The notes: generated by a model from the sequence alone, not told the origin. A stretch of DNA of 64,000 nucleotides from Clostridia bacterium (GCA_045604905.1 JAZUOX010000070.1:345-64344); one strand, 5' to 3'. Counted from the first letter of the stretch, positions 23,724 to 45,857 are shown. Made by a program: numbers and translations.

Positions 23724-25700
23724 TTATTTCTTTCCTTTAAGGGCATATTCTTCTTTAAGCTTTTTATCTGCGTTGATGCACAGATATACACAGATTGCAG
23801 CGATAACGGCAATTACAATAATTCCGGGAACAAATCCTGCACCAACTGTACCTGTTGATATAAGAGAACCTATCTGATATGCAAGAAATCCTACTGTAAA
23901 GCCTACACTAAGCTGTAAACCAATACCTGCAAAGAGCCACTTTTTACTATTAAGTTCTGCATTCATTGCACCGATAGCTGCAAAGCAAGGCGGTGTAAAA
24001 AGGTTAAACATCATATAGCTGAGAGCAGCAATTGCTCCGACACCCGTAGTTGCTTCAAACACGGTGCCGCTTACCTCTTCAATATTTGAAATAGCAAACA
24101 ATGTTGCAAGTGTTCCTACAACGTTTTCCTTTGCAATAAAGCCTGTAACCGCACAGGCAACAAGTTTCCATGATGCAAGACCAACGATGGGAACAAGAAT
24201 CCAGTCGATAGGTCCGCAGATTGTTGCAAGAATTGAATCACTGCCATTTTCCAGAGCCGGTTTAAAGCCAATTGTGAATGAACCCATAATAGTAACTACC
24301 ACATTACATATAAGGATAATTGTACCTGCCTTTACTATGTAAGCCCAGCCACGTCCACACATGGACTTAACGGCTCTCCAGAGTGAGGGAACTTTATATT
24401 CGGGAAGTTCAATAATAAAGAATGATTTTCTGTTTTTATATCCTGTTATTTTGTTAATGAGAAGTGCACAAAGGAGAATAATTACGATACCTGCAAAGTA
24501 CATCGCAGTACCAATCCATGCGTGATTTTTGAAAAATGCACCCACAAAGAGTGAAATTACGGGTAATTTTGCACCGCAGGGCATAAAGGGTGCAATCATT
24601 GCGGTAGCTCTGCGTTCACGCTCATTACGGATAGTACGGCAAGCCATAACACCGGGAATTGCACAACCTGTACCGATAACAAAGGGAATGACTGATTTGC
24701 CTGAAAGACCAACCTTTTTGAAAATGGGGTCAAGAACAACAGTTGCACGAGCCATGTAACCGCAGTCCTCTAAAAGAGCAATCATAAAGTACATAACCAT
24801 TACAAGAGGCAGGAATCCGACAACGGCACCTACACCATCGATAATGGCACTTGATACAAGCGACTTAAGAATTTCACTGTTTGAGCCTGCCATCCAGCCC
24901 TCAACAACACCGCCGAAAACTTCGATACCTGCAACAAGCCAGTCTGCAATCATCGGACCGAGCCAAGCCTGGGAAACCCAGAACACTAACCACATTATTA
25001 CTGCAAAAAGAGGAATACCAAGCCATTTGTTGGTAATAATTGCATCAATTTTATCTTGCTTGTTCTTTTCGTTAGTTTTAACTTTTCTCTTTTCTACATT
25101 CTTAACAACGCTGTTAACGAAAGCGAACCTGTCTCTGTCTGCTTTTTCGACTGCTGCTTTGTCTGCAAGATTGATATTGCACTGTATGTAAGGTGCAGTC
25201 TGCTCTTTACCTTTAAGTGCTGTAGCAGCCTCTACAACCTCTTTAAGACCTTCTGCAGATGTGGAAACCGTATCTATTACAGGACAGCCAAGCTTTTCTG
25301 AAAGTGCCTTTGTATCAATCTCTGTCTGCTTCTTTTCGTTGATATCTGCTTTGTTAAGCGCAACAACCACCGGCACACCAAGTTCAAGAAGCTGTGTTGT
25401 AAAAAACAGGCTTCTGCTTAAGTTTGTTGCATCCACAATGTTTATGATAGCATCGGGGTTTTCATTTTTTACATAAGCACTTGTAATGCTTTCCTCAGAT
25501 GTAAACGGTGACATTGAATATGCACCCGGAAGGTCAACTGCAATCAGTTCCTCTTCCTGATAAAAGCTCTTTTTAATAGGAGCTTCTTTCTTTTCCACTG
25601 TTACGCCTGCCCAGTTACCAACCTTTTCATTACGACCGGTGAGAGCGTTATACATAGTGGTTTTACCGCTGTTAGGGTTACCCGCTAAGGCAATTCTCAT
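23724..25700 (-). CDS. feoB: Ferrous iron transporter B
   Basis: GNPNSGKT, GNWAGVTVE, DLPGAY, NKAD GTPase motifs plus TM domain. Confidence 0.97.
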   Translation of the reverse strand: MRIALAGNPNSGKTTMYNALTGRNEKVGNWAGVTVEKKEAPIKKSFYQEEELIAVDLPGAYSMSPFTSEESITSAYVKNENPDAIINIVDATNLSRSLFFTTQLLELGVPVVVALNKADINEKKQTEIDTKALSEKLGCPVIDTVSTSAEGLKEVVEAATALKGKEQTAPYIQCNINLADKAAVEKADRDRFAFVNSVVKNVEKRKVKTNEKNKQDKIDAIITNKWLGIPLFAVIMWLVFWVSQAWLGPMIADWLVAGIEVFGGVVEGWMAGSNSEILKSLVSSAIIDGVGAVVGFLPLVMVMYFMIALLEDCGYMARATVVLDPIFKKVGLSGKSVIPFVIGTGCAIPGVMACRTIRNERERRATAMIAPFMPCGAKLPVISLFVGAFFKNHAWIGTAMYFAGIVIILLCALLINKITGYKNRKSFFIIELPEYKVPSLWRAVKSMCGRGWAYIVKAGTIILICNVVVTIMGSFTIGFKPALENGSDSILATICGPIDWILVPIVGLASWKLVACAVTGFIAKENVVGTLATLFAISNIEEVSGTVFEATTGVGAIAALSYMMFNLFTPPCFAAIGAMNAELNSKKWLFAGIGLQLSVGFTVGFLAYQIGSLISTGTVGAGFVPGIIVIAVIAAICVYLCINADKKLKEEYALKGKK

Positions 25701-25744
25701 AACAATTCCTCCTCGAAAACATGTTTAAAAAAATAATCAACCAA

Positions 25745-25760
25745 GTTAGTCATTGCTAAC
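25745..25760. promoter_or_regulatory. DtxR/MntR-type metal repressor box
   Basis: GTTAGTCATTGCTAAC between feoA and feoB. Confidence 0.65.
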
Positions 25761-25802
25761 TCCAAAGCAAAAAGTAATCAGCAGATTACTTCCCGACTTT
25801 TT

Positions 25803-26018
25803 TCAGAAAACAATAATTGCCTCTGCAAGCTCGTTATCAATGTTATAGCGTCCGTCCTTAATGGAAACCACGCAGCCACCCTTAAGGTGTGAGATTACCG
25901 TTATCGGCTCACCGCTGTAACAACCAAGTGAAAACAGAAACGCATCAAGCTCTTCGTCGTCAGTCTCAATCCGCTGAACAATATATTCTTTTCCTTCTTC
26001 TGCAGATTTTAAGTTCAT
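25803..26018 (-). CDS. feoA: Ferrous iron transport protein A
   Basis: SH3-like FeoA pattern (FLFSLGCYSGEPITVI), upstream of feoB. Confidence 0.9.
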   Translation of the reverse strand: MNLKSAEEGKEYIVQRIETDDEELDAFLFSLGCYSGEPITVISHLKGGCVVSIKDGRYNIDNELAEAIIVF

Positions 26019-26044
26019 ACGCATCTCCCGATTTCGTTTTCTTG

Positions 26045-26131
26045 GTTAGCTTTAGCTAACTAAGATTCATAAAAAATGAATTAGCCTTTGCTAACCGTAG
26101 TTATTTTAGCATTAAAAAAGGAGGTTGTCAA
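26045..26131 (-). promoter_or_regulatory. feo promoter with two DtxR/MntR-type boxes
   Basis: TTGACA(26131-26126)-17-TAAAAT(26108-26103); boxes GTTAGCTTTAGCTAAC at 26045-26060 and ATTAGCCTTTGCTAAC at 26080-26095. Confidence 0.75.
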
Positions 26132-26267
26132 TACTTTTTTTGGATTTTTTTTGCATTTTTTAATGACTGATTTTAATGTTGCCACCTCATCCGAGTTTTG
26201 CTAAGCAAGGCATACCTTCCCTTGTACAGGTAAGACTTATCTTTTAAATAACAAAGTTTTAGAAATC

Positions 26268-26357
26268 AAAAAAGAAGTGTGTCGCTTTACCTATGTTACG
26301 TCCTGACAAAATTCAATTCTGCCAAATATTGTTCGCGATCAGATTACGCAAATTCCT
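26268..26357. repeat. Copy R3 of the dispersed ~90-bp repeat
   Basis: Shares CAAAATTCAATTCTGCCAAAT and ATTACGCAA with R2. Confidence 0.8.
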
Positions 26358-26366
26358 GCAATACAA

Positions 26367-26398
26367 AAAGAGATTCGCTCGAAAGAGCGAATCTCTTT
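26367..26398 (-). terminator. Terminator of surface-protein paralog A
   Basis: AAAGAGATTCGCTC-GAAA-GAGCGAATCTCTTT. Confidence 0.9.
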
Positions 26399-26417
26399 AA
26401 TGGATTTTGCTTAATTA

Positions 26418-29400
26418 TCAGTCGTGAAGTTCTGCGTTAGCATATGCAATAGGTGTAATACCGTCTGCTTTTACTACGAAAAGCTTAACCTGATCGTAAG
26501 CAGCTGTCACCTTGGGGTTTTCTGTACTAAGGTTATTTACAACACCATTTTCTTCGTTGTAACGGTCACCTGTACCTGTCTTTGAATCCCAAGCTTCTGT
26601 TTCAGCAAAGTCAACAATACTTGTATCCACTAACTTACCACCAAGATACTTAGCAACAACGAGCTTTTCATCGCCTGCTGCACCTTCAATCCAAGCACCG
26701 TTGAGGCAATCTGCTGTACCGAGTGTAAGAGTTCTGATTGCTACGGGAGCAACAAGTCTTGTAAATGTCTTTGACTCTGCAATGCCGTTAGCAGTTGCTG
26801 TAACTGTCATTGTTACTTCCTTCGGTGATGTAACGTTGATAGCGGTTACAGTATCATTGCCAATCTTCCATGTGATTGCCGGACCGTCTGTTACATATGT
26901 ATAGCCTGCGGGATTTGAAGGCTTGAGTGCACCGTTATCAAGGTCTCTGTCGAAGAGTGTGCCTGAAATCCACCAAGACTTACCAATTGTCATAGCAGGA
27001 AGTGCACAGTTTGTAAGAACAGGCTTGTTATAAGCAGAAGCATAGTCGAAGAGTGCTGCATTAAGAGCTGCATTTACCTCTACTGCGTTCTGGTCAACAT
27101 ATTTGCTGAGTGAAATGTTATCAACCCAGATTTCGCCTGTACTGCTAAGCTCAAGTGAGTAACCGCGGATTGCGCTACCACCGTTAGCAGGAAGCTTCAT
27201 ATTAGCCTGAAGAATGGGAAGCTCGTTAAGAAGCTGACCATCAATGTAGATATACATTGTCTGTGAAAGTACGTTGTGGTCAACCATTACGTTAACCCAT
27301 TCGCCCTCACCCTTTTCGATAACGCTCTGAGGCATATCGAAGTAAAGTGCCTTGTTTGCATCAACTGCTGTGTTATTTCCATTTAAGTAAGCAACAGTAG
27401 AGTTAACCTGAACCTTGCCTGTGTTGTAGTTAAGGTAAATGTTTATACCGTTTGAACCGGCAATAGTCTTGAAGCTGATAGCACCTGAACTGCCGGCAGC
27501 ACCGTTGTGGGTATACTTAACGTCAGCCTTAAGAATTACTCTGTCCGTACAGGTTGCACCGTCAATACTAACGATAGAACCTGTTGCTTTGTGTCCTGTT
27601 CCTTCATTCTTAAGGTGAAGAACACTGCCGTGTGAAGCATCTTCATCTGCTACGATTTCAGCACTGCCTGTTGAAGTATCTGTTGAGAAGTCAATAGCCT
27701 TAATGAGAGTTGTTCCATCTGCAACTGTAACAGGTATTGTAACAGTAGCTTCTGCTTCGCCTGCAGAGATAGTAGCCGTCATATTAACAACTACATTTTC
27801 GCCTATAGAAGCAAGCTTTACTAATGTACCATCATTTGCAATGTAAGCTGTATTGCTTGATGCCCAGTCAACATTAACACCATATGTAGCAGGATCATAA
27901 TCTGCATAGCCGTTGTCAAGGTCAAGAACTGCACCTACTGCAGAGACTGTGCCAATGTTTGATTCTTCAACAAGAGTCTTGAAGAAGCTAACCTTTTCAG
28001 CATCTGGAAGTGTTGTAAGAACATCACTAGCAGGTCTTGTGATATAAAGCTTAATATCATCAGTATGGAAGAAGTTTACAGGTGTTGTAGGAGCAGTTGT
28101 ACTGTCCATATTGCTACGTCCTGTGAACTGGAATTTTGCTGATGTGATAGTTGCAGGAACTGCACTCTTTGTTTTATGAGTACCTACAAGCTTATCGTCA
28201 ATGTAGCACTTTACAGAGTAGCCTGTTGCTGATTCTGCATTTGCGTAGATTTCAAACTTGATTTTATACCATGTGTTAGCTGTGATGTTCTTATCGGCTC
28301 TTGCTGCGGATGGACCGTAGTAACCATCGCTGCCAAGATCATAGTCGTTATCATAAAGATACTGGTTGTAGTAAATGAATTCCGCCATTTCGTTACCGTT
28401 AAGGAGAAGTCCCCAGTTAGCAAGACCTGTTTTTACAGGAACTCTTACCTTAGCTTCGAAAACGAGTGTTTCGCCTGCTGCAAGAGCAGTGGGGTAAGAT
28501 GCGAATGTGTACTGGGGAGATGTACCGCTAGGCTGATAAGCACTGGCACAGATGCTGTAGTAGTTGTTACCATCTGCATCTTCGCCAACGTCCATTCTTT
28601 CCCAAGACTGGATTGAAGATGTCCAGCCTGTTGCACCAACAAAGCTTGTGCCGGGTGTAAGAGACTCTGCATCAGCAACCTCTGATACAAATGACTGTGT
28701 AAGGGGAAGTACATTTACAGTGTAGTTTACTACTACATCTTCTGCACCTTCTACAGAAAGGGTACCTGTAACAGTAGCCGTTGCAGCCTCAAACATAGGA
28801 CGCTTTATAGTACCGTCTTCTGCGACAACAGCGGGGTTAGTAGATGTCCATGCGATGCTAACACCGTCTATAAGCTCTTCAGCGGGAGCAAACTTAAGGT
28901 TTGTTGTAAGTGCTGCGAAGTTGCCACCATTTGCAACATATTCTGCTTCAAGATACTGTGAGTAGTATGCTGACTTTTCTGCAGGTGTTGCGTTAGCGAG
29001 AACAGTTTCTGCAGGAACAGACTGATATTCAACCCAGTTATCAAGTGTGTAGTTACCTGTTGCACTGTCAGATGCGTCTACGATTGTAATGTTTGTAATA
29101 ACAACCTTTGCTACATCGTCTACTGTGCAACCTGTCTCAAACTTACCAACTGCAAAAAGGTTGTTTGTTGCATTCAGGACACCGTTACCCCAGAAGTCAC
29201 CTGTCATAGGGTCATACTTGATTTCAACATTGTTCTTTCTGTATGCGCCCATCCAGTAGCCGCCCCAACCGCTTGAAGCAAGTCTTGAAACAGTCTGGCC
29301 TGCGATTGAGCCAACCTTAGTGCCTTCTGCGTTGTACTTAACAGCATCAATACGGATATCAATACCTGTTGCAACATTTGAAACAGAAGCTGAATCAAAT

Positions 29401-29921
29401 CTGATTGTGTAGATTTCATCAGATGTGGGAGCCTTGGGTGCATGATAAAGCCATACACGACCGCTGCCGTCTGTGTGGTTCACAGAGAACACACCGTCAG
29501 CAACAGCACTTCCACCGTTGTTTGCAGAGCCTATGTACCATTCGGGATAGTTTACAAATGTGTGTTTGTTTGAAGCTGTAGCTGTAGTAGCTTCTGCTAT
29601 AGCGAAATCTTCACTATAGAGTACATTAGTTGTCTGTGCCTTTACTGTTACTTCAACAGCTTCACCGCCATTGATTGTAAGTGATACAGTTGCATCCTCG
29701 AAAAGGGGACGCTTTACAGTACCGTCTGTTGCGATAACATCTGTGTTTGAAGAAGATGTAATCGTATTTTCGCCAAGCACAAGATTGCTTGTAACGAAAT
29801 TTGCAGGCTGACCATTAGCGATAGCTGAAAAGTCAACCGCTGTTCCCTCTGCCATAACTGTGAATGAGCACATTGAGAGTACCATTAACACAGAAAGGCA
29901 AAGTGCCATGAGTTTTTTCAT
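26418..29921 (-). CDS. Large secreted surface protein, paralog A (1167 aa; Ig-like and LamG/ConA-like modules); no promoter found in the current orientation
   Basis: Sec signal peptide; repeated W.S+N..V...DGT..RP Ig-like motifs alternating with beta-sandwich domains (Y.YIDG); strong codon bias; AGGAGG RBS. Confidence 0.85.
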   Translation of the reverse strand: MKKLMALCLSVLMVLSMCSFTVMAEGTAVDFSAIANGQPANFVTSNLVLGENTITSSSNTDVIATDGTVKRPLFEDATVSLTINGGEAVEVTVKAQTTNVLYSEDFAIAEATTATASNKHTFVNYPEWYIGSANNGGSAVADGVFSVNHTDGSGRVWLYHAPKAPTSDEIYTIRFDSASVSNVATGIDIRIDAVKYNAEGTKVGSIAGQTVSRLASSGWGGYWMGAYRKNNVEIKYDPMTGDFWGNGVLNATNNLFAVGKFETGCTVDDVAKVVITNITIVDASDSATGNYTLDNWVEYQSVPAETVLANATPAEKSAYYSQYLEAEYVANGGNFAALTTNLKFAPAEELIDGVSIAWTSTNPAVVAEDGTIKRPMFEAATATVTGTLSVEGAEDVVVNYTVNVLPLTQSFVSEVADAESLTPGTSFVGATGWTSSIQSWERMDVGEDADGNNYYSICASAYQPSGTSPQYTFASYPTALAAGETLVFEAKVRVPVKTGLANWGLLLNGNEMAEFIYYNQYLYDNDYDLGSDGYYGPSAARADKNITANTWYKIKFEIYANAESATGYSVKCYIDDKLVGTHKTKSAVPATITSAKFQFTGRSNMDSTTAPTTPVNFFHTDDIKLYITRPASDVLTTLPDAEKVSFFKTLVEESNIGTVSAVGAVLDLDNGYADYDPATYGVNVDWASSNTAYIANDGTLVKLASIGENVVVNMTATISAGEAEATVTIPVTVADGTTLIKAIDFSTDTSTGSAEIVADEDASHGSVLHLKNEGTGHKATGSIVSIDGATCTDRVILKADVKYTHNGAAGSSGAISFKTIAGSNGINIYLNYNTGKVQVNSTVAYLNGNNTAVDANKALYFDMPQSVIEKGEGEWVNVMVDHNVLSQTMYIYIDGQLLNELPILQANMKLPANGGSAIRGYSLELSSTGEIWVDNISLSKYVDQNAVEVNAALNAALFDYASAYNKPVLTNCALPAMTIGKSWWISGTLFDRDLDNGALKPSNPAGYTYVTDGPAITWKIGNDTVTAINVTSPKEVTMTVTATANGIAESKTFTRLVAPVAIRTLTLGTADCLNGAWIEGAAGDEKLVVAKYLGGKLVDTSIVDFAETEAWDSKTGTGDRYNEENGVVNNLSTENPKVTAAYDQVKLFVVKADGITPIAYANAELHD

Positions 29922-29998
29922 AGTGTTTTCCTCCTAAAAAATATTTTTATATTTAATTAATTTAATTTCGGTAATAATATTAATAGGAAGAAACTCCA

Positions 29999-30026
29999 CT
30001 ACCACATAATTTGAATTATGTGGTAG
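29999..30026. repeat. Left recombination site (IRL), dif-like 11-6-11
   Basis: CTACCACATAA-TTTGAA-TTATGTGGTAG with perfect arms. Confidence 0.92.
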
Positions 30027-30088
30027 AAACAGATTGACTTTTGAAAAAAGTATGATTTACTTATACAAAAAGGGAAGGAAATATATTT

Positions 30089-30928
30089 ATGAATAAAATA
30101 ACTGATAATTTAGTGCAAAATTTCTGCCAAAAACTTTTTTGCGAGGAAAAATCAACTGTTACAATTGAAAAATATGTGCGTGATGTTCGAGCCTTTCAGA
30201 AATGGTTATCCGGTAAACCGGTAAAAAAAGAAACAGTTATTGTATATAAAAACTATCTCACGGAAAATTATGCCCCGAAAAGTGTAAACTCAATGTTATC
30301 ATCGCTTAACAGTTTCTTTGATTTTTTGAACTGGAATGATTGTCGTGTCAAAACGCTGAAAATCCAGCGACAGATTTTTGCGGACAAAGAAAAAGAACTT
30401 ACCAAAAAAGAGTATGGCAAGCTCCTTTCTGCAGCACTTGAAAATGGAAATCATAAAATGTATCTTCTTATGCAGACAATTTGTTCAACAGGCATCAGAG
30501 TGTCAGAACTTAAATATATTACAGTAGGGGCAGTAAAAGCGCGCAGGGCAATAATCAACTGTAAAGGAAAAATGCGTGTTGTTATTCTTCCCGAGCAACT
30601 GTGCAAAATACTTGTGCAATATATTAAGAAAGAAAGACTCATAAAAGGAAGTGTTTTTGTTACAAAAAGCGGAAATCCTCTTGATCGGTCAAATATCTGG
30701 AAAATGTTAAAAACTTTGTGCGAAAGTGCCGGTGTGTCAAAGGAAAAAGTTTTCCCTCACAATTTCAGGCATCTTTTTGCAAGGACGTTTTATTCAATGC
30801 AGAAAGATATTGTCCGCCTTGCGGATATTTTAGGACATTCCAGCATTAATACTACTAGGATTTATACTATTGAATCCGGTGCAGAACACAGGAAACAGCT
30901 TCAAATGCTTGGTCTTTTACGGTGCTAA
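30089..30928 (+). CDS. Tyrosine recombinase (XerC/D-like invertase)
   Basis: Catalytic residues present: TGIRVSEL (R), KGK (K), HNFRH (HxxR), LGHSS (H), TRIYT (Y); SAM-like N-terminus. Confidence 0.95.
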   Translation: MNKITDNLVQNFCQKLFCEEKSTVTIEKYVRDVRAFQKWLSGKPVKKETVIVYKNYLTENYAPKSVNSMLSSLNSFFDFLNWNDCRVKTLKIQRQIFADKEKELTKKEYGKLLSAALENGNHKMYLLMQTICSTGIRVSELKYITVGAVKARRAIINCKGKMRVVILPEQLCKILVQYIKKERLIKGSVFVTKSGNPLDRSNIWKMLKTLCESAGVSKEKVFPHNFRHLFARTFYSMQKDIVRLADILGHSSINTTRIYTIESGAEHRKQLQMLGLLRC

Positions 30929-30989
30929 CCATTTTTAAAAAACGGACAAAATTTATTTAATACTTTTGTTAAAAATATACATCAAAGTA

Positions 30990-31018
30990 TTGACAAATCC
31001 GAAAAATAGAGGTATACT
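30990..31018 (+). promoter_or_regulatory. Strong sigmaA promoter inside the invertible segment, pointing outward through IRR
   Basis: TTGACA(30990-30995)-17bp-TATACT(31013-31018) with an AT-rich upstream region. Confidence 0.85.
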
Positions 31019-31048
31019 TGGATTGTATAATTATAGGTAGGAGTATCA

Positions 31049-31076
31049 CTACCACATAATTCAAATTATGTGGGAG
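31049..31076. repeat. Right recombination site (IRR), inverted relative to IRL
   Basis: CTACCACATAA-TTCAAA-TTATGTGGGAG; spacer TTCAAA is the reverse complement of TTTGAA. Confidence 0.92.
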
Positions 31077-31160
31077 GGGAGTTTCTTCTTTCCACATTTG
31101 CACTTTGAAAATTTAATTAAATTAATTATATATAAATATTTTATTTAGGAGGAAAACACT

Positions 31161-34100
31161 ATGAAAAAACTCATGGCACTTTGCCTTTCTGTGTTAATGG
31201 TACTTTCAATGTGCTCATTCACAGTTATGGCAGAGGGAACAGCGGTTGACTTTTCAGCAATTGCTAACGGTCAGCCTGCAAATTTCGTTACAGGCAATCT
31301 CGTGCTTGGCGAAAATACGATTACATCTTCTAATGAAGCAGTAATCGCTCTTGATGGTACTGTAAAGCGTCCCCTTTTCGAGGATGCTACTGTATCACTC
31401 ACAATCAACGGCGGTGAAGCTGTTGAAGTAACAGTAAAGGCAAAGACAACTAAGGTTCTTTACGCTAATGACTTTAGCTCAGCAGTAGGCAGTGAATGGA
31501 AGCTTAATGCTGTAGGCACAAATGTTCCTTCTGCAGTTGCAGACGGAAAGCTTAATGTTGTTATCGGTGCTACAACAAGTGGACGTACTAACATCACATA
31601 CTCAATGCCTTCAACTATTGATTACACCAAGCCTGTAAGCGTTAAGTTTGATGTTGACAATTTCACAGACCTTGCTTTTTCAGGTGCAGACATCAGACTT
31701 AACGGTGGTGTTTACAACGCTGACGGAACAATCTATAAGGCTTTTCCCTCCGGAATGTTTGCAAGAGTTAATACTACAAGCGGATTTTCAAGCAGCTACT
31801 TTACAGCAGGTAAGAGCATTGATTTCAAGTACGACCCGTTGACAGGTCAGGTATGGACACTTGCAACAGGTGCGCTTTCAGCAAATACACTTGTAGATTT
31901 TGCAATGTCTCAGGGAACAATCCCCGAAGGCGGGGCTGTACTTCCCGAGGGAGGCTATGTTAAAATCACATCTCTCTACTTCACCAATGCAACAGACGAT
32001 TGTACAGCTACATTTGATGTAGATGACTTTATTGTATATCAGGAAGTTTCCGATGAAGAAGCTCTTGCTAACGCAACACCTGCAGAACTTTTGGCTCACT
32101 ATTCATATCTTCTTGATGAAGAGTATGTTGAAAATGGTGGAAACCTTGATGCACTTACAACTAACCTTAAGTTTACTTCCGACGCGGCTCTTCCCGGAGG
32201 TGTAAGCCTTACATGGACATCTACAAATGCTGCTATTGCTTCTGATGGTACTGTTAAGCGTCCCATACTTGAGGCTGCAACAGCTACAATCACAGGTACA
32301 CTCGTTTGTGGTGAAGAAAGCATTTCCAAATCATACAATGCAACAATTCTTCCCCTTACAATTGCAGGACAGAGCGAGATCGTTGATTTCGATAGCTACG
32401 GTCTTGCAAATGGCGAAACTGTTTCAGCTACCGGTTGGAAAGTGGATAGTGCAACCGTAACAAACGTTGTTGAAAACGGCAATAGCTATGGACAGCTCAA
32501 TTCAATTGCAGGCTATAAAGAACAAGCAGCTGTTTATACTTTCCAGAATGCTCCCACAACAACTGAACGGTATTATGTAATGAGCTTTAAGTATAAGAAT
32601 ATAAGCCTTCCCGCTACAGTTATGAATATCGGTTTGAGGCTTAACGGAAAATACATCGGAGCCTTTGCTCAAAGAGCTGCTGCATCACAGTTCCACGCTA
32701 TTAAATGGAGTGGTTCATTAAGTGGTGGTGTTAACGGTGGTGGTGTATTTTATGGCAGCAATGCCTCTTTCTTTACATTACCCAGTGGATTTGTTGAAAT
32801 GAAAATAGTTGTCGATACAGTTGAAGAAATGGTTCATTACTATGTTGGAAATAGCGAAACTCCGGTTGCATCGACAGGCTATGTAGACTATAAAGACAAT
32901 GGAATTGCCGTAGGTACAAGCTTTAATAACATCACATCAGCACAGCTTTATTTCTCAGCGCGTGCAACTGAGAAGATACCTGCTACAGTTGCCATAGATG
33001 ACGTTAAGTTCTATGCACCTCAGTCGATTGAAAGCGTTCTTCCTACACTTTCAGATGCAGAAAAGGTTAATTACTTCAAAAACCTTGTTCAGAATTCTGA
33101 AATCGGCACAATCAAAAGAGTTGGTGATAAGCTTACTCTCGCTACAACTTTTGCAGAAGCTGATCCTGCTGCATCCGGTGTTGCAATTAACTGGAAATCA
33201 GATAAAGCAGAATACGTTTCAAACGACGGCACATTGATTAAACTTGCTCCCATTGCTTCAAACCTTACAGCTAATGTAACAGCTACAATCACAGCAGGCA
33301 GTGTAAGCGATACAGTTTCATTTGCTGTTCCCGTTGCAGATGGAACAACTCTCATTAAGGCTATCGATTTCTCAGACGCTACTACCGTAACAGGCAGTGC
33401 TGAAATCGTGACAGATGAAGATGCTGCACACGGTAGTGTTATTCACCTTAAAAATGAAGGAACAGGTCACAAAGCAACAGGTTCAATCACATCTCTTAAC
33501 GGTGCAGATGTGTTTGACAGAGTTATTCTTACCGGTGATGTTAAGTATTCACACAACGATGGCACAAGTTCTTACGGTGGTATCAGTTTCAAGACAATTG
33601 CCGGTTCGAACGGTATAAACGTTTACTTCAACTACAATACAAACAAAATCCAAGTATGGACAACTATAGCAGAAGTCAATGCGAGTGGTACCAGTGTTTC
33701 TGTTGCGAACGGTGGTATACTGTACTTCGATATGCCTCAGAGCGTTATCGAAAAGGGTGAAGGCGAATGGGTTAACGTAATGGTTGACCACAACGTACTT
33801 TCACAGACAATGTACATCTATATTGATGGTCAGCTTATTAACGAGCTTCCCATTCTTCAGGCTAATATGAAGCTTCCTGATAACGGTGGCGCTGCAATCC
33901 GAGGTTACTCACTTGAGCTTAGCAGCACAGGCGAAATCTGGGCTGATAATATTTCTTTCAGAAAATACAATGACCAAAACGCAGCAGAAGTAAATGCGGC
34001 TCTTAATGCAGCACTCTTTGACTTCGCATCAACTTATAATAAGCCCGTTCTTACAAACGGCGCACTTCCCGCAATGACAATTGGTAAGTCTTGGTGGATT

Positions 34101-34649
34101 TCAGGCACACTCTTCAACAGAGACCTTGATAACGGTGCACTCAAGCCTTCAAATCCCGCAGGCTACACATATGTAACAGACGGCCCTGCAATCACATGGA
34201 AGATTGGCAATGATACTGTAACCGCTATTAACGTTACATCACCGAAGGAAGTAACAATGACAGTTACAGCAACAGCTAACGGCATTACAGAGTCAAAGAC
34301 CTTCACAAGACTTGTTGCTCCCGTAGCAATCCGCGACCTCGCTCTTGGTACAGCTGATTGCCTCAACGGTGCATGGATTGAAGGTGCAACAGGTAATGAA
34401 AAGTTCATCGTAGCTACATACCTCGATGAAAAACTCGTATCTGTTGACCTTATAGACTTTACTGAAACAGAAGCTTGGGATTCAAAGACAGGTACAGGCG
34501 ATCGCTACAACGAAACGATCGGTGTTGTAAATAACCTTAGTACAGAAAACCCCAAGGTGACAGCTGCTTACGATCAGATTAAGATTTTCGTAGTTGATGC
34601 AGACGGCATCACACCTCTTGCATATGCTAACGCAGATCTTCACGACTGA
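31161..34649 (+). CDS. Large secreted surface protein, paralog B (1162 aa); predicted ON in the current orientation
   Basis: First ~95 aa and last ~300 aa nearly identical to paralog A; central domains differ. Confidence 0.85.
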   Translation: MKKLMALCLSVLMVLSMCSFTVMAEGTAVDFSAIANGQPANFVTGNLVLGENTITSSNEAVIALDGTVKRPLFEDATVSLTINGGEAVEVTVKAKTTKVLYANDFSSAVGSEWKLNAVGTNVPSAVADGKLNVVIGATTSGRTNITYSMPSTIDYTKPVSVKFDVDNFTDLAFSGADIRLNGGVYNADGTIYKAFPSGMFARVNTTSGFSSSYFTAGKSIDFKYDPLTGQVWTLATGALSANTLVDFAMSQGTIPEGGAVLPEGGYVKITSLYFTNATDDCTATFDVDDFIVYQEVSDEEALANATPAELLAHYSYLLDEEYVENGGNLDALTTNLKFTSDAALPGGVSLTWTSTNAAIASDGTVKRPILEAATATITGTLVCGEESISKSYNATILPLTIAGQSEIVDFDSYGLANGETVSATGWKVDSATVTNVVENGNSYGQLNSIAGYKEQAAVYTFQNAPTTTERYYVMSFKYKNISLPATVMNIGLRLNGKYIGAFAQRAAASQFHAIKWSGSLSGGVNGGGVFYGSNASFFTLPSGFVEMKIVVDTVEEMVHYYVGNSETPVASTGYVDYKDNGIAVGTSFNNITSAQLYFSARATEKIPATVAIDDVKFYAPQSIESVLPTLSDAEKVNYFKNLVQNSEIGTIKRVGDKLTLATTFAEADPAASGVAINWKSDKAEYVSNDGTLIKLAPIASNLTANVTATITAGSVSDTVSFAVPVADGTTLIKAIDFSDATTVTGSAEIVTDEDAAHGSVIHLKNEGTGHKATGSITSLNGADVFDRVILTGDVKYSHNDGTSSYGGISFKTIAGSNGINVYFNYNTNKIQVWTTIAEVNASGTSVSVANGGILYFDMPQSVIEKGEGEWVNVMVDHNVLSQTMYIYIDGQLINELPILQANMKLPDNGGAAIRGYSLELSSTGEIWADNISFRKYNDQNAAEVNAALNAALFDFASTYNKPVLTNGALPAMTIGKSWWISGTLFNRDLDNGALKPSNPAGYTYVTDGPAITWKIGNDTVTAINVTSPKEVTMTVTATANGITESKTFTRLVAPVAIRDLALGTADCLNGAWIEGATGNEKFIVATYLDEKLVSVDLIDFTETEAWDSKTGTGDRYNETIGVVNNLSTENPKVTAAYDQIKIFVVDADGITPLAYANADLHD

Positions 34650-34668
34650 TAATTAAGCAAAATCCATT

Positions 34669-34700
34669 AAAGAGATTCGCCCGATCGGGCGAATCTCTTT
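34669..34700 (+). terminator. Terminator of paralog B
   Basis: AAAGAGATTCGCCC-GATC-GGGCGAATCTCTTT, homologous to the paralog A terminator. Confidence 0.9.
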
Positions 34701-34776
34701 TGTCATACTGAAACTTTCAAATGCAATAACAAACGGGGCGAATTTTACAAAAACGTAAAAACACCCCGTTTAAATA

Positions 34777-36180
34777 TTATCTCAGATATTCATCTATTGC
34801 TTTTGCCGCTGTTTTACCTGCCCCCATTGCGGAAATTACCGTTGCGGCACCAGTTACAGCATCACCGCCTGCATACACACCTTTGCGTGATGTAAGCCCG
34901 TATTCATTCACTACGATACCGCCCTTTTTATTAACCTCAAGCCCGTCAGTTGTAGACTTAATAAGAGGATTTGGTGATGTACCGATTGACATAATCACCG
35001 TATCAACCGAAATTTCAAACTCACTGCCCTTTATTTCTACAGGTCTGCGCCTGCCTCTTTCATCAGGCTCGCCAAGTTCCATTTTCACGCACTTCATACT
35101 CTTTACAAAGCCGTTCCTTTCATCACGGGGGTTATCGGGGTTGTTATATCCGATAATTTCCACAGGTGATGTAAGAAATCTGAACTCTACCCCCTCTTCC
35201 ACAGCGTGCTCAACCTCCTCGCGTCTTGCCGGAAGCTCATCCATTGAGCGACGATATACAACATATACCTTTTCCGCGCCAAGACGAAGTGCTGTTCTCG
35301 CAGCATCCATAGCAACATTACCGCCACCAACTACTGCCACTTTGCCGCCTCTCATAATAGGGGTATCGGGGGATTGCCCATAAGCTTTCATAAGATTGCT
35401 TCTTGTAAGATATTCATTTGCAGAATATACACCTTTAAGCGCTTCTCCCGGAATATTCATAAAAACGGGAAGACCTGCTCCCGAACCGATAAATACAGCC
35501 TCAAAACCCATATCAAAAAGTTCATCCACTGAGAGAGTTTTTCCAATGACAACATTAGTCTGTATATCAACTCCGAGAGCCTGCAATGACTGAACCTCTT
35601 TTTTAACGATTGCTTTCGGCAGTCTGAATTCCGGAATACCATACACAAGCACACCGCCTGCAGTGTGAAGAGCTTCAAACACAGTTACGCTGTAGCCCTT
35701 TTTCGCAAGGTCACCTGCACAGGTAAGCCCCGACGGTCCTGAGCCGACAACGGCTACTTTGTGCCCGTTACTTTCAGGTTTTTCGGGAGGAGCTGTCACA
35801 AAGGCATTGTGCCAGTCTGCCACAAATCTTTCAAGTCTTCCGATACCTACGGATTCGCCCTTTATACCGCGGACGCACTTTGCCTCACACTGGTTTTCCT
35901 GAGGACACACCCTGCCGCACACTGCAGGAAGAGACGAGGATTTCGTTATAATCTGATAGGCAGCTTCAAAATCGCCCTCTTTTATTTTTCCGATAAATTC
36001 TGGAATGTGAATATTAACAGGGCAGCCTGTTACACAGGGCATATTTTTACAGTTAAGGCAACGCATCGCCTCCGCCACTGCTACATCTTCGCTATATCCA
36101 AGTGCAACCTCCCGGAAATTGCATGCTCTCGCGGATGGATCCTGCACAGGCATTTCGTTTCTTTTGGATAAATCTGCCAT
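34777..36180 (-). CDS. nfnB: NfnB/SudA-like large subunit (often annotated NADPH-dependent glutamate synthase)
   Basis: RCLNC..PC..GCP, CGRVCPQE, GSGPSG, GGGNVAMD, GGDAVTG; paired with an NfnA-like gene. Confidence 0.88.
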   Translation of the reverse strand: MADLSKRNEMPVQDPSARACNFREVALGYSEDVAVAEAMRCLNCKNMPCVTGCPVNIHIPEFIGKIKEGDFEAAYQIITKSSSLPAVCGRVCPQENQCEAKCVRGIKGESVGIGRLERFVADWHNAFVTAPPEKPESNGHKVAVVGSGPSGLTCAGDLAKKGYSVTVFEALHTAGGVLVYGIPEFRLPKAIVKKEVQSLQALGVDIQTNVVIGKTLSVDELFDMGFEAVFIGSGAGLPVFMNIPGEALKGVYSANEYLTRSNLMKAYGQSPDTPIMRGGKVAVVGGGNVAMDAARTALRLGAEKVYVVYRRSMDELPARREEVEHAVEEGVEFRFLTSPVEIIGYNNPDNPRDERNGFVKSMKCVKMELGEPDERGRRRPVEIKGSEFEISVDTVIMSIGTSPNPLIKSTTDGLEVNKKGGIVVNEYGLTSRKGVYAGGDAVTGAATVISAMGAGKTAAKAIDEYLR

Positions 36181-37034
36181 CACTGCACCTCCTTATTATA
36201 GAGATTGCAGGTGTTTTCGTATGCGTGGTGCTCAAAATCGGCATACATTCTGCCTCTTGACATTGCCTCGTCAAAATCAACCTCGTACCCGTTAAAATCC
36301 GGGCCGTCAACACAAGCAAACTTTATAACTTTTTCACCGTTTCGGTTAAGAGTAAGCCTACATCCGCCACACATACCGGTGCCGTCAATCATAATAGGAT
36401 TCATGGAAACCGTAACAGGCACACCGTAAGGTTTTGCTGCGAGTGTAACAAACTTCATCATAATAAGAGGACCGATAGTGATAATCATATCAAACTTTTC
36501 CCCGTCCTCGAGCATCTTTTTGAGAGGAATTGTTACATTACCTTCCTCTCCATAACTACCGTCGTCTGTCATAACAAAAAGGCGGTCAGAACACTCACGG
36601 AATTCGTCCTCGAGAATAACTATGTCTTTATTTCTGAAACCGATTATTGATGTAACCTCTGCGCCCATCTCGTGAAGCTTCTCGGCAATGGGCATAGCAA
36701 TAGCACAGCCTACGCCACCACCGACGATACATACTTTTTTAAGCCCGTCAAGGTGTGTCGCAGTACCGAGAGGCCCTACAAAATCCTCAATAAAATCGCC
36801 TTCGTTTTTCTCTGCAAGCTTTCTTGTTGTCGAGCCTACAATCTGGAAAATGATTCTGACGCTGCCCTTGTCCGAATCTGTTCCGGCAACAGTGAGGGGT
36901 ATCCTCTCTCCATCTTCATCAACTCTGAGAATGATGAATTGCCCCGGCTCGGCTTTTTTTGCAACAAGGGGTGCTTCTATATTAAGTTCCGTTACAGAAG
37001 GGTTGTGCACCTTCTTTGATAAAATCTTGTACAT
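36180..37034 (-). CDS. nfnA: NfnA/SudB-like FAD/NAD-binding 2Fe-2S subunit
   Basis: GQFIILR..GERIPLT, GGGVG, MIDGTGMCGGCR, ACVDGPDF. Confidence 0.9.
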   Translation of the reverse strand: MYKILSKKVHNPSVTELNIEAPLVAKKAEPGQFIILRVDEDGERIPLTVAGTDSDKGSVRIIFQIVGSTTRKLAEKNEGDFIEDFVGPLGTATHLDGLKKVCIVGGGVGCAIAMPIAEKLHEMGAEVTSIIGFRNKDIVILEDEFRECSDRLFVMTDDGSYGEEGNVTIPLKKMLEDGEKFDMIITIGPLIMMKFVTLAAKPYGVPVTVSMNPIMIDGTGMCGGCRLTLNRNGEKVIKFACVDGPDFNGYEVDFDEAMSRGRMYADFEHHAYENTCNLYNKEVQ

Positions 37035-37066
37035 TTTAATGACTCCAATTTAATAGGTATTTATTT

Positions 37067-37095
37067 ATTATACATCATATCTCTTTGAAAATCAA
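37067..37095 (-). promoter_or_regulatory. nfnAB promoter
   Basis: TTGATT-17-TATAAT. Confidence 0.6.
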
Positions 37096-37202
37096 TATAT
37101 CTGACGACAAAAACAGTGCATAAAATCAATAATTATGCGGTTTTGATTAATATTTGAGTCAAGTAATCATCCCTCAATGTAACCGTTTGGTTACTTGATT
37201 AT

Positions 37203-37231
37203 ATTATAATATATGATACAAGATTTGTCAA
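37203..37231 (-). promoter_or_regulatory. Perfect-consensus sigmaA promoter upstream of a hairpin (candidate sRNA or leader)
   Basis: TTGACA-17-TATAAT. Confidence 0.7.
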
Positions 37232-37262
37232 CATCAAACTCAGCTCAATTTATATTCCATAT

Positions 37263-37448
37263 AAAAGCAGGCTGAGCCTGCATTCATATCGCACTCTCAG
37301 TTTGTGCAAACATATATTCATGCGTCTTAATTTAACGCAAATTCCTATACGGTAGCAACAAAAAAGAAGCGTGCCGCTTCACCCATGTTGCGCACATACA
37401 AAGTGCAAACATAGTTTCACGCATATTAATTTACGCAAATTCCTATAC
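37263..37448. repeat. Two tandem copies (R4, R5) of the dispersed ~90-bp repeat
   Basis: GCAGGC-TGA-GCCTGC...ACGCAAATTCCTATAC, then GAAGCG-TGC-CGCTTC...ACGCAAATTCCTATAC. Confidence 0.85.
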
Positions 37449-37452
37449 AGCA

Positions 37453-37484
37453 AAAAATCCTCCCGAGTTTTCGGGAGGATTTTT
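37453..37484 (-). terminator. Terminator of paralog C
   Basis: AAAAATCCTCCCGA-GTTT-TCGGGAGGATTTTT. Confidence 0.9.
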
Positions 37485-37497
37485 AATTATTCAGTGA

Positions 37498-40400
37498 TTA
37501 CCAGTCAAGCATACCGTCTCTGAACGCTACGGGAACAATGCCGCCTTCATTCATTACGAAAATCTTAACTTCTTCGATTACATCGCTTGTACCGGGATGA
37601 GCAACGCCTGTACCGCGGAGGATACCTGTTGCAGGATCGTAAGACTTAGAGTTTGTCTCGTTGATTTCTTTATTTGCAAGTTCTGCAAGGTCGAAAATCT
37701 GCACCCAATCAGTCTTTCTGTTTTCAAGGTATGTTACAATGATAACCTTTTCGTTACCTGTTGCACCATCAAGCCATACACCGTTAAGGCAAGAAGCTGT
37801 ACCCTGTGCAAGACCACGGATTGCTACTGGAGCAACCTTTCTTTCAACTGTGAAAGATTCTGTGATGCCGTTTGCTTCAGCAGTAACTGTGAAGTCAACA
37901 ACACCTACCTTGTCAACATTGATTGCAGTAACTTCTTCACCGTCAATTGCGTATGTAAGAGTGGGACCGTCTGTTACAAACTTATATGTTGAAGCGTTTT
38001 CAGGCTTGATTGAGAATGTTGACTTAGTTGTGCCGTCACCATTATCAGTAACTGTTTCGTTAACATCTCTCTTGTATCTGTCGCTTGCAATCCAGCTCTT
38101 ACCGATTGTCATAGCGGGAAGCTCGCAGTTTGTAAGAACTGTTCTGTATTCTTCTGATGCGTAAAGAACAAGTGCTGCGTTAAGAGCTGCATTTACTTCA
38201 ACTGCATCTGTGTTAGCGTATTTCTTAAGAGATACGTTGTCAACCCACATTTCACCTGCAAGGCTAAGCTCGATTGAGTAGCCACGAATTGCACTACCGC
38301 CGTTTCCGCCAAGATCCATATTAGCCTGAAGAACAGGAACGGGATTTACAACTTCACCGTCAAGATATACCTGATATGTCTGTGAAACTGCGTTGTGGTC
38401 AACTGTAAGTCTAACCCATTCGCCTTCGCCCTTTTCAAGAACGCTTGCGGGCATAGGATAGCTTACTGTCTTATACTTGTTTACATTAAGACCTGTTGCA
38501 GCACCGTTAGCTTCTGTCTTTGTTGTGATAAGAGAAACTGTACCTGCTTTGTAGTTAAGACCGACCTGGATACCGTTCTGTCCTGCATAAGTCTTAACAC
38601 TGAAGCCACCGTAAGAATTTTCTACATCACCGTGCACGTACTTAATGTCAGCGTCAAATACTACTCTGTCACCTCTGCCGCCACCTGTTATGTTTGAGAT
38701 AGTACCTGAAGCCTTGTGGCCTGTGCCTTCATGCTTAAGGTGGAGAGCCTTACCGGTGCCGTCTGCAATAATTTCTGCACTAGCGAGTGCACCTGCTTCA
38801 AGGTCATCAAAGTTAACTTCCTTAACAAGCACTATACCGTCTGTAAGAGTAACATCTACAGAAGCTGTAGCTTCTTCAAGACCTGCCGCGATTGTAGCTG
38901 TCATAGTAACAGTCTTTGTTGTGCCGATTGGTGCAAGAGTCTTAACTACACCATTCTCTCCGATATATGCATCGTCGCTTGTTCCCCATGTGATATTTAC
39001 ACCAAGAGAACCAAGGTCGTAACCTGCATAAGAATCAGCAAGACCAAGGTTCTGACCTGCTGTCACATTTGCAGGAATTTCTGTAGCTTCTATAAGTTCC
39101 TTAAAGAAGTTAATCTTACCTGCGTCGTCAAGAGTAGCAAGAACTGAATCTATTGACTGTGTTGTGTAAACCTGAACATCGTCTGTATCGAAGAAGTATA
39201 CAGGTGTTGTAGGCTCAGTTTTGCTGTCCATATTGCTACGACCCTTAAGGTAGAAGCTTGCAGATGTGATTTCTTCAGGAACAGCATTAGCTGTAGAATG
39301 TGTACCTACAAGCTGGCCATCAAGGTAACACTTTACTGTCCAACCTTTTGTTGCAGCTGCATCTTCAGTAATTTCAAATTTTATGTTATACCAGGTATTA
39401 GCTGCGATATTCTTATCAGTTCTTGCCGCACCTGCACCGTAGTAATCATCATTACCGAGGTCATAGTCGTTATCGTAAAGATACTGGTTATAGTAAATGA
39501 ACTCAGCCATTTCCTTACCATTAAGCTGAAGTCCCCAGTTAGCAGTACCGCCCTTTACGGGAACTCTTACCTTAGCGTCAAATACAAGTGTGTCGCCCTC
39601 ACCTACTGCGGGAACAGCCTTGAATGTGTATTTGGGGAAAGAACCGCTAGGCTCATAAGAACTTGCACAAATGCTGAAGTACTTATTGCCGTCAGCGTCT
39701 TCCTTAACTTCCATAGCTTCCCAATCCTTGATTTCTGCAGGTGTCCAGCCGTCTGCACCAACAAAGCTGCCTACTTCAAGGTTTTCTGCATCAAGAACTT
39801 CTGTTGCAGATGTCATTGAAAGAGGAAGAACGTTAACAGTATATTCCTTAACGATGTCTTCTGCACCTTCAACTGAAACTGTACCTGTAAGTGTAACAGT
39901 CTTAGTTTCGAAGAAAGGACGTGTAACTGTACCGTCAAGTGCGATAACAGCTTCGTCACTTGATTCCCATGTGATAGAAGCGCCTGCTATAAGGTCTTCT
40001 TCAGCTGTAAGCTTAAGGTTTGTTGTAAGAGCCGCAAAATCGCCACCGTTTGCAACGTAATCTTCTTCAAGATACTGTGCATAGTAAAGTGCCTGCTGTG
40101 CAGGTGTTGCAGATGCAAGAACATCTTCTGCAGCAACATCCTGATATACTGCGAAGTTATCAATGCTGTATGTACCTGTAGCAGCATCTGAAGCGTCTAC
40201 AAAGCAGAAAGATGTAATAGCAACCTTTGCTACATCATCAGCTGTATATCCTTCTTTAATTGTAGCGTTATCAGTGATAAGGTTTTTGGCTGCGAGAACA
40301 CCGTTACCCCAGAATTCACCTGTCATAGGATCATACTTAATTGTAACGCCTGCCTTCTTGTAGCCGCCCATCCAGTAGCCACCCCAACCGGCTGCAGCAA

Positions 40401-41034: not shown

Positions 41035-41121
41035 AGTATTTTCCTCCTTTAAAAAAATGTATTTTGTTATGCTGTGCCAAAATTTGTCATTTTCATCAAC
41101 AGCACAAACGTTCACGTAATT

Positions 41122-41150
41122 ATTTTACTACAACATCACTAAAAAGTCAA
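41122..41150 (-). promoter_or_regulatory. Dedicated promoter of paralog C
   Basis: TTGACT-17-TAAAAT; no recombination site nearby. Confidence 0.7.
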
Positions 41151-41195
41151 TAAAAGTTGTCACATAATTTTAATAAAATTGAAATTATTGTAACA

Positions 41196-41230
41196 AGAAA
41201 AAACCAACGCAAATTGCGTTGGTTTTTTCT
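41196..41230 (-). terminator. Terminator of the SLH operon
   Basis: AGAAAAAACCAACGCA-AAT-TGCGTTGGTTTTTTCT. Confidence 0.88.
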
Positions 41231-41245
41231 CGTTAGTCTTTTAAC

Positions 41246-44020: not shown

Positions 44021-44045
44021 ATTTTTCACCCTTGCCATTCCTTTC

Positions 44046-45851: not shown

Positions 45852-45857
45852 CGTTGC

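Follow-up and report, generated by a model that had tools for sequence, protein, structure and literature searches.

The DNA considered here is a stretch of 64,000 nucleotides (nt) from a Clostridia bacterium (GCA_045604905.1, JAZUOX010000070.1:345-64344), hereafter the window, and all coordinates are counted from its first letter. It contains two genes of opposite orientation, A and B, which code for large secreted paralogs and are separated by a segment of about 1 kb. Two short sites bound this segment, which encodes a tyrosine recombinase and carries an outward-directed promoter-like sequence. Judging from the comparisons presented below, inversion of this segment very probably selects which of the two genes is expressed.

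Anatomy of the locus

Both sites are palindromes of 28 base pairs (bp) with an 11-6-11 organization. The left site reads CTACCACATAA-TTTGAA-TTATGTGGTAG and the right one CTACCACATAA-TTCAAA-TTATGTGGGAG, their 6-bp spacers being mutually reverse-complementary. A degenerate 25-mer pattern of the site has two matches in the window, one on each strand, for 0.00 expected (100 shuffles), and a fuzzy search across the whole assembly (2.16 Mb, 75 contigs) found none beyond these two except for one match with six mismatches on contig C4, which was taken as chance. Around the sites, the inverted-repeat arms extend over 40 nt at 95% identity. The segment is hence bounded by inverted repeats as an invertible promoter should be, in the form of two 28-bp sites with complementary spacers. 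The recombinase gene is the sole open reading frame (ORF) of at least 80 amino acids (aa) that lies between them. Gene A starts 77 bp outside the left site and gene B 84 bp outside the right one, both behind the shared ribosome-binding site AGGAGGAAAACACTATG.

On a larger scale, positions 26366-34701 form a single large inverted repeat at the DNA level, with matching hairpins at both ends. The 5' ends of A and B are related over 217 nt at 95% and 137 nt at 86%, and their 3' ends over 710 and 252 nt at 90%. The hairpin behind A is 88% identical to the one behind B (repeat family D8); for the latter, the scan lists the T-rich tail on the minus strand, and this perfect palindrome could form on either strand. 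The RNA of the B leader (31025-31175) is predicted to fold with z = -2.23 into a minimum-energy structure that does not include the site palindrome, and no reading was drawn from it. A Rfam scan of 25500-42000 returned no match.

It was also observed that three of the four site arms are bordered by similar stretches of 17-23 nt, namely the alpha outer, beta outer and promoter-side inner flanks (D3, I11; stretches 29977-30026, 31027-31076 and 31049-31088), the flank on the 5' side of the recombinase gene being different. This likeness could be that of an extended binding region or the trace of the second site's origin.

Table 1. Features of the switch locus and its surroundings, in window coordinates.
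Feature	Position	Strand	Remarks
Terminator hairpin downstream of A	26367-26398	-	14-pair stem followed by a T run
Paralog A, 1167 aa	26418-29921	-	Secreted multi-domain beta-sandwich protein, target in the flipped state; ORF; three aBig_2 stretches
Alpha outer flank	29922-29998	-	5' leader of A with ribosome-binding site; conserved beside the A orthologs of G014, G029 and G035
Left recombination site	29999-30026		11-6-11 palindrome, spacer TTTGAA; breakpoints of G014, G029 and G035
Tyrosine recombinase, presumed invertase, 279 aa	30089-30928	+	Pfam PF00589 and PF02899
Putative outward promoter TTGACA-17-TATACT	30990-31018	+	11/12 consensus; alignable with the short-inverton promoter
Right recombination site	31049-31076		Spacer TTCAAA; collinearity of G014 and G029 restarts here
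Beta outer flank	31077-31160	+	5' leader of B with ribosome-binding site; recurs in G014 and G029
Paralog B, 1162 aa	31161-34649	+	Faces the promoter in this assembly; ORF; aBig_2
Putative terminator hairpin downstream of B	34669-34700	+	Stem in repeat family D8
Paralog C	37498-41034	-	Context, outside the switch; aBig_2; identity 57% with A, 41% with B

The recombinase and the promoter

The recombinase scores 96 bits against Phage_integrase (PF00589; cut-off 27.1) and also contains the N-terminal SAM-like domain PF02899. No serine-recombinase (resolvase) domain was found by Pfam in the 279-aa protein, which has tyrosine-recombinase domains only. In a HMMER alignment to the XerA structure 5hxy, the stretches GIRVSEL, GKMRVV, PHNFRH, LGHSS and TRIY line up with XerA motifs, in which we take R, K, H-x-x-R, H/W and Y to be the catalytic set. 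On this alignment, the set is complete. The ORF is unbroken. The protein is Xer-like and matches PHROGs integrase families. It does not reach the NCBIfam equivalog cut-offs of XerD (139.2 vs 329.6 bits) and XerC (116.6 vs 335.15 bits), nor those of the FimB/FimE-type models NF007370 (35.2 vs 221 bits) and NF007371 (25.0 vs 222 bits). It stands outside the FimB/E-type family, though its action may be alike. It is the sole member of its own family in the assembly, where the next tyrosine recombinase is 27% identical.

The putative outward promoter is among the two top-scoring promoter-like sites within 26000-35000 and is directed through the right site towards B. No promoter-like site of at least 9/12 directed at A was found in 29922-29998, and none directed at B in 31077-31160, i.e. 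in either leader.

This layout had been read from the sequence alone in an original prediction, which described two sites with reverse-complementary spacers, an intact tyrosine recombinase and a TTGACA-17-TATACT promoter as the only contents of the segment, paralogs of about 1165 aa starting about 80 bp outside the sites behind the same ribosome-binding site, and no promoter for either gene outside the segment. All these elements were recovered, the site positions being exact.

Both orientations occur among related species

Close relatives of the recombinase (75-86% identity) are found in four of the 38 other species of the genus that were compared (G014, G034, G029 and G035). In each of them, the gene sits between two sites located 1.03-1.06 kb apart, with TTTGCA/TGCAAA spacers. 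The site downstream of the gene has a TTGACA-17-TATAAT/TATACT promoter on its inner side, at a distance of about 30 nt. Counting the genome of the window (G000), the promoter is kept at the same place and the recombinase ORF is intact, with 279 aa, in all five loci (316 aa in G034 from the first listed start). This recombinase-inside group adjoins an aBig_2 paralog in 5/5 species and lies between two such paralogs in 4/5.

The orientation of the segment differs between these species. In G000 and G034, the leader next to its promoter end is of the beta type, whereas G014, G029 and G035 have the alpha leader there, their A orthologs being at this end; in G014 and G029, the beta flank type adjoins the end of the segment that carries the 5' side of the recombinase gene. 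Pairwise blastn comparisons located the breakpoints. With G014, the FeoB flank, A and its leader are collinear up to 30025, 29632-31462 is found on the opposite strand, and collinearity restarts at 31049 and includes the right flank (34777-37100). With G029, collinearity extends to 30027 and restarts at 31050, and with G035 it extends to 30031 (the 3' two-thirds of A being 93% identical at the nucleotide level); in both cases the segment is on the opposite strand. Two states are thus represented, G000 and G034 in one and G014, G029 and G035 in the other, with breakpoints at the sites. Since these map within the 28-bp sites rather than to the longer coding repeats located 80-430 bp outward, site-specific recombination is favored over general recombination.

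In the recombinase tree, the five species branch as ((G000,G014),(G029,(G034,G035))), all these forks being starred. Combined with the observed orientations, this topology requires at least two flips among the five species. The tree left out L005 (a duplicate of L024), the duplicates L044 and L045 and the partial or distant sequences L059-L067, and was rooted at its midpoint, on a very long outgroup branch.

Proposed mechanism

Collectively, these data make it likely that 30027-31048 is a site-specific invertible element whose own recombinase flips a single promoter between A and B. The recombinase would bind the conserved arms (core CCACATAA / TTATGTGG) and strand exchange would take place within the asymmetric 6-bp spacers; as these are in inverted orientation, recombination would yield inversion. 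With the segment as assembled, transcription would start at the promoter just behind the recombinase gene, cross the right site and enter B. Once the segment is flipped, this promoter would still follow the recombinase gene, but transcription from it would cross the left site and enter A. A population would alternate in this way between two secreted lectin/Ig-like proteins with shared ends and different centres. We infer that the recombinase is the catalyst of the inversion, that switching is ongoing in the strain and that the segment promoter is the sole effective one for A and B, so that their expression would be either/or.

The original prediction that a self-encoded recombinase inverts the segment of about 1.05 kb thus finds support in the opposite orientation seen in three related species, with breakpoints at the sites, and in the association of related recombinases with short promoter invertons that occur in both orientations, as described below.

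A wide family of recombinases associated with promoter invertons

Matches to the recombinase at E <= 1e-30 are present in 40 of the 61 genomes of the relatives sample, often in several copies, and at least 8000 sequence clusters of a protein collection match it at 1e-40, all of them unnamed. The related loci are labelled Clostridia, Oscillospiraceae, Congzhengia, Ructibacterium and Monoglobaceae, and several come from ruminant guts. Relatives of about 59-69% identity are accompanied by two sites with the same arms, 207-274 bp apart, around a conserved TTGACA-17-TATAAT promoter. In most loci, these short invertons directly follow the 3' end of the recombinase gene; in L051 and L054, a distance of 165-475 bp separates the two. 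Site pairs with complementary spacers were obtained for 20/20 loci in a first set and 16/21 in a second one. After the duplicates L044, L045 and L048 were dropped, 33 distinct loci with a site pair remained, comprising 28 short invertons and the five loci with the recombinase inside. A single site was present in L059 (contig end), L060, L061, L027 and the fragment L029. When several promoter matches occurred in one inverton, the match at the conserved position was taken; on this basis, 17 of the 28 short invertons have a promoter directed at the recombinase and 8 have one that points the other way, while none was called by the pattern in 3.

Inversion is also apparent in this group. L006 and L007 are collinear over 1-907, inverted over 888-1172 and collinear over the remainder, which corresponds to an inversion exactly between the sites, and L014 is likewise inverted exactly between the sites relative to L013. 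For L010 and L017, the inversion is less clean. L049 and L050 were dropped as an orthologous pair of opposite orientation, their downstream genes being different (a TetR regulator vs an ADP-ribosyltransferase-domain protein). Several recombinase-inside relatives on contigs of about 1 kb were not used as indications of assembly breaks at the sites, short contigs being usual there.

Twenty different spacer pairs were found, each exactly reverse-complementary within its locus and none palindromic. A related observation concerns the genomes with several copies of the system: in six of them, 14 resolved pairs have the same arms and no spacer is reused within a genome (L008, L074 and L075 in G012; L016, L071 and L072 in G030; L012 and L068 in G045; L009 and L076 in G052; L020 and L078 in G055; L003 and L080 in G034). 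Six loci are outside these 14 pairs, i.e. L069, L070, L077, L081, L073 (no site) and L079 (contig end). The difference in spacers from one locus to the next looks like a natural insulation between switches. In L007/L048, L008, L009, L010, L025, L058 and L071, a third site with the same spacer was noticed 33-40 bp off one end.

The genes behind ten short invertons code for a TetR-type regulator in six cases, an SPFH protein with zinc ribbons in two, an ADP-ribosyltransferase-domain protein in one and a protein without Pfam match in one. In L050 (7414-9198), the inverton promoter faces a gene whose 594-aa product combines an N-terminal coiled coil and an ADP-ribosyltransferase exoenzyme domain (Pfam E = 1.7e-28). 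Another observation was made on the metagenome contig L029 (5700-6500), in which only the last 60 codons of a close recombinase relative (88% identity) are kept, with a single site (spacer TTTGTA) and a secreted-looking ORF of 312 aa behind them; it is apparently a decayed, locked switch, to judge from its sequence.

In the part of the literature that was searched, the site motif, invertons of this group and this family or layout were not found described; the inverton catalogues of PMC5903667 and PMC11602134 might list such loci.

Weighing the alternatives

Several observations weigh against a self-encoded toggle that is active in the strain, and they are considered here together with the other explanations of the locus. 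The first of these is that the segment flipped in evolution and is now fixed in the strain, with B constitutive and A a silent reserve copy. Only one orientation of the segment is present in the assembly, one outer arm of the right site carries a change (GGGAG), and L029 provides a precedent for decay in a relative. Yet the recombinase ORF is unbroken and retains the full catalytic set, the same arm variant (CCCACATAA) also occurs in the site pairs of relatives (L006, L007, L011 and L019), and the segment turned over at least twice among five close species. We grant this explanation a small but appreciable chance. The sequencing data searched do not include the strain: no public run contains more than 0.15 of the sampled words, the Logan contigs of X1, X2, X4 and X5 on 28000-33000 (88% likeness) are relatives' fragments only, and the 19 loci obtained by scanning metagenome contigs with the recombinase all belong to other species, the fragment L029 being the nearest. 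One contig shows an opposite-strand joint at 30000/31097, with 32 letters on its shorter side, which falls in the 40-nt inverted repeat and is uninterpretable. The joints 29042/31970, 29730/31348 and 29845/31402 were rejected as flips, as they join A-like and B-like repeats.

A second possibility, which we regard as unlikely, is that the segment flips without exclusive expression, A, B or both having outside promoters and inversion altering only their level. The AT-rich leaders could conceal weak promoters, and a weak 9/12 promoter-like site within the segment (30108-30080, minus strand) is directed at A. However, neither leader has a site of at least 9/12 directed at its gene, and both start directly at the recombination sites and are kept as leaders in relatives. 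With regard to the promoters themselves, the scan is not enriched overall (22 found vs 19.2 expected), the site at 30990-31018 is called from its consensus match alone, and nothing convincing as a promoter of the recombinase gene was seen when 30027-30088 was inspected by eye.

The inversion might also come about by general homologous recombination of the long A/B inverted repeats, with the recombinase uninvolved, which would resemble the Campylobacter fetus sap locus. Such long and very similar repeats do exist, the 5' ends of the paralogs are homogenised within species (in G029, for example, there is no difference over the first 40 residues), and the G034 cassette seems rearranged on a larger scale. 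In that species, the outside synteny conflicts with the flank type, which implies that larger rearrangements of the cassette occur too. However, three comparisons place the breakpoints at 30025-30031 and 31049-31050, inside the sites, the alpha and beta leaders stay with their genes, and short invertons of the same family are inverted exactly between their sites although they have no long repeats. This explanation therefore appears very improbable. That the recombinase and its inverted repeats form a small mobile or integrative element inserted by chance between the paralogs can hardly be entertained, despite the PHROGs integrase match and the Xer-like nature of the protein, given its single copy in the genome, the aBig_2 paralog alongside in 5/5 species (on both sides in 4/5), the constant location of the wider family beside a promoter inverton and the lack of other mobile-element genes among the surrounding ORFs checked.

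Other points concern the generality of the toggle and of its sites. In G035 (L024, 4800-5700), whose genome is listed with 7% contamination, the side of the segment away from the A ortholog has a hairpin and what is left of the beta leader but no second paralog, so that the element would be an ON/OFF switch there. The script used to find site pairs picked them by spacer complementarity. Finally, L069, the one exception noted, has two sites with non-complementary, unrelated spacers, and L070, L077 and L081 have one site each.

Taken together, these considerations leave the recombinase-driven promoter toggle between A and B as the explanation that we regard as likely.

Origin of the two-gene layout

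An alignment from the recombinase stop codon to the distal site indicates how the toggle may have arisen. The loci with the recombinase inside retain the module running from the promoter to the distal site, and are without the proximal site and the approximately 150 nt behind it. They form one clade (100/100 support) among the short-inverton relatives. We infer from these sequences that the toggle derives from an ON/OFF inverton, the proximal site having been lost, a new site having appeared upstream of the recombinase and a second paralog having replaced the OFF state. The direction from the short form to the toggle depends on the root, which the tree does not fix.

The two layouts also differ in their states. 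In the short form, one of the two states would direct antisense transcription from the promoter into the recombinase gene. In the toggle, the recombinase and promoter keep the same relative position in both states, which would leave no obvious built-in bias in switching. Gut Clostridia may then have a very large and apparently undescribed family in which each recombinase gene is paired with a promoter inverton of its own, and the window element would be its derived, self-contained and symmetrical form. The arms CCACATAA / TTATGTGG would be common to all loci, the 6-bp spacer, different at each locus of a genome, would serve as a natural orthogonality code preventing recombination between the switches of one chromosome, and the move of a site past the recombinase would have made of an ON/OFF switch a portable and unbiased cartridge toggling two antigenically different surface proteins. 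Taken as a whole, this scenario is put forward tentatively, as its chances come close to even and do not quite reach it.

The paralogs and their neighborhood

A and B are 57% identical (691/1205 aligned columns). Their first ~100 and last ~420 residues are near-identical and their centres divergent, and A has an N-terminal signal-peptide-like helix (residues 2-23). An AlphaFold model of A, built on a 24-sequence alignment, is a chain of beta-sandwich domains (mean pLDDT 83.1, pTM 0.52). Foldseek searches with this model retrieved lectin-like, CBM, LamG and galectin-type jelly rolls belonging to glycosidases and further carbohydrate binders, with the low TM scores expected for a multi-domain query. 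Atlas matches for A and B were only hypothetical Bacillota proteins of Ig/LamG/CBM-type families, and NCBIfam gave no match for either. The protein family had been predicted to be uncharacterised, and in fact the C-terminal 427 residues have counterparts in only 27 proteins of the collection, which are without exception unnamed and endowed with aBig_2. By Pfam, A, B and C contain no SLH or other wall-anchor domain but aBig_2 only. From these results, A and B are secreted and probably glycan-binding or adhesive proteins, possibly held on the surface by a partner, where they would presumably be displayed.

The 5' ends of the flanking paralog pair are near-identical within a species, as noted in G029 (L023, 5910-9422 and 10673-13126) and in the window (29751-29967 and 31115-31331), and the orthologs of different species differ more from each other at this end than the two paralogs of one species. 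This pattern suggests concerted evolution of the 5' ends via gene conversion.

The third paralog, C, has a promoter-like site of its own (TTGACT-17-TAAAAT, 41150-41122, 10/12), located behind a hairpin (41196-41230). Because this site is fixed, the family is not strictly either/or, and a cell would express C together with either A or B. Upstream of it, AAATTATGTG (41165-41185, minus strand) matches part of the site arm and the spacer edge; it may be a chance match or a relic half-site. C belongs to an envelope-type cluster (37498-48788, minus strand) which also comprises a 930-aa and a 976-aa protein without Pfam match and a 601-aa SLH protein. The gene of the latter (44046-45851, minus strand) lies 10 kb off the A/B locus and codes for three SLH stretches, and this protein might anchor the aBig_2 paralogs.

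Significance and comparison with known systems

If active, the element would be a compact two-state antigenic or adhesive switch in uncultured Clostridia of the animal gut, for which one protein and two 28-bp sites suffice. Its very abundant recombinase family seems to operate promoter invertons throughout gut Clostridia, whose phase variation is far less charted than that of Bacteroides. The interest of this family lies in its conserved arms and locus-specific spacers, in the presence of ON/OFF and toggle layouts within one family and in the small size of the element. It could help to understand strain-level heterogeneity in the gut and be a source of orthogonal recombinase-site pairs.

The general principle has precedents. 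Dworkin and Blaser reportedly described, in 1996, a single promoter on an invertible segment between opposed homologs with conserved 5' ends, at the sapA locus of Campylobacter fetus. The sap inversion is RecA-dependent and involves long conserved 5' regions and a segment of several kb devoid of a dedicated recombinase. Here, in contrast, the breakpoints are at 28-bp sites and the recombinase is on board.

The Hin segment of Salmonella is about 1 kb long and controls one operon in an ON/OFF manner, the either/or outcome being obtained indirectly through a repressor. As in the window, both the recombinase gene and an outward promoter are inside the flipping segment (PMC5903667). Hin is however a serine recombinase, whereas the window protein has tyrosine-recombinase domains only. 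Among tyrosine recombinases, FimB/FimE at fimS of E. coli and RecV at cwpV of Clostridioides difficile invert a short regulatory segment ahead of a surface-protein gene (PMC6083910, PMC2784873). Their layout is shared with the short invertons of the family described above; they differ from the window element in being ON/OFF switches, and the window recombinase remains far from the FimB/E-type model (35.2 vs 221 bits).

The closest functional relatives appear to be, by analogy, the single-promoter loci of mycoplasmas, namely vpma and the related vsp of M. bovis and vsa/HvsR of M. pulmonis. At the vpma locus of Mycoplasma agalactiae, all the surface-protein genes of a family depend on one and the same promoter, the sites are in the 5' leaders, and the tyrosine recombinase Xer1, encoded next to them, is needed (PMC2268961). 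By its layout, the window element corresponds to this type, with sites in both leaders, one strong promoter-like site and a recombinase in between. The likeness extends to the encoding of the tyrosine recombinase at the locus and, in the proposed mechanism, to the activation of a silent gene by inversion (PMC2268961). The vpma locus differs in having six genes, a recombinase beside the locus and unrelated lipoproteins; the window element serves two genes, and its recombinase is carried along with the promoter.

In Ureaplasma parvum, inversion alternates neighbouring surface-protein genes at mba/UU376 and UU172/UU171 (PMC3047005, PMC3599477). Short inverted repeats, inversion and an either/or outcome between two neighbouring genes would be common to both systems. 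The inversion of this mollicute differs in occurring within the genes, with possible chimeras, and its candidate recombinases are elsewhere in the genome.

The original prediction thus overstated the novelty of the element, a single invertible promoter between opposed surface-protein genes and a recombinase inside its own segment having both been described already. What is new is the combination of a tyrosine recombinase and a promoter as one cartridge of about 1 kb between two paralogs, in an uncultured Clostridia lineage, and also the putative derivation of this toggle from a very large and apparently undescribed inverton family.

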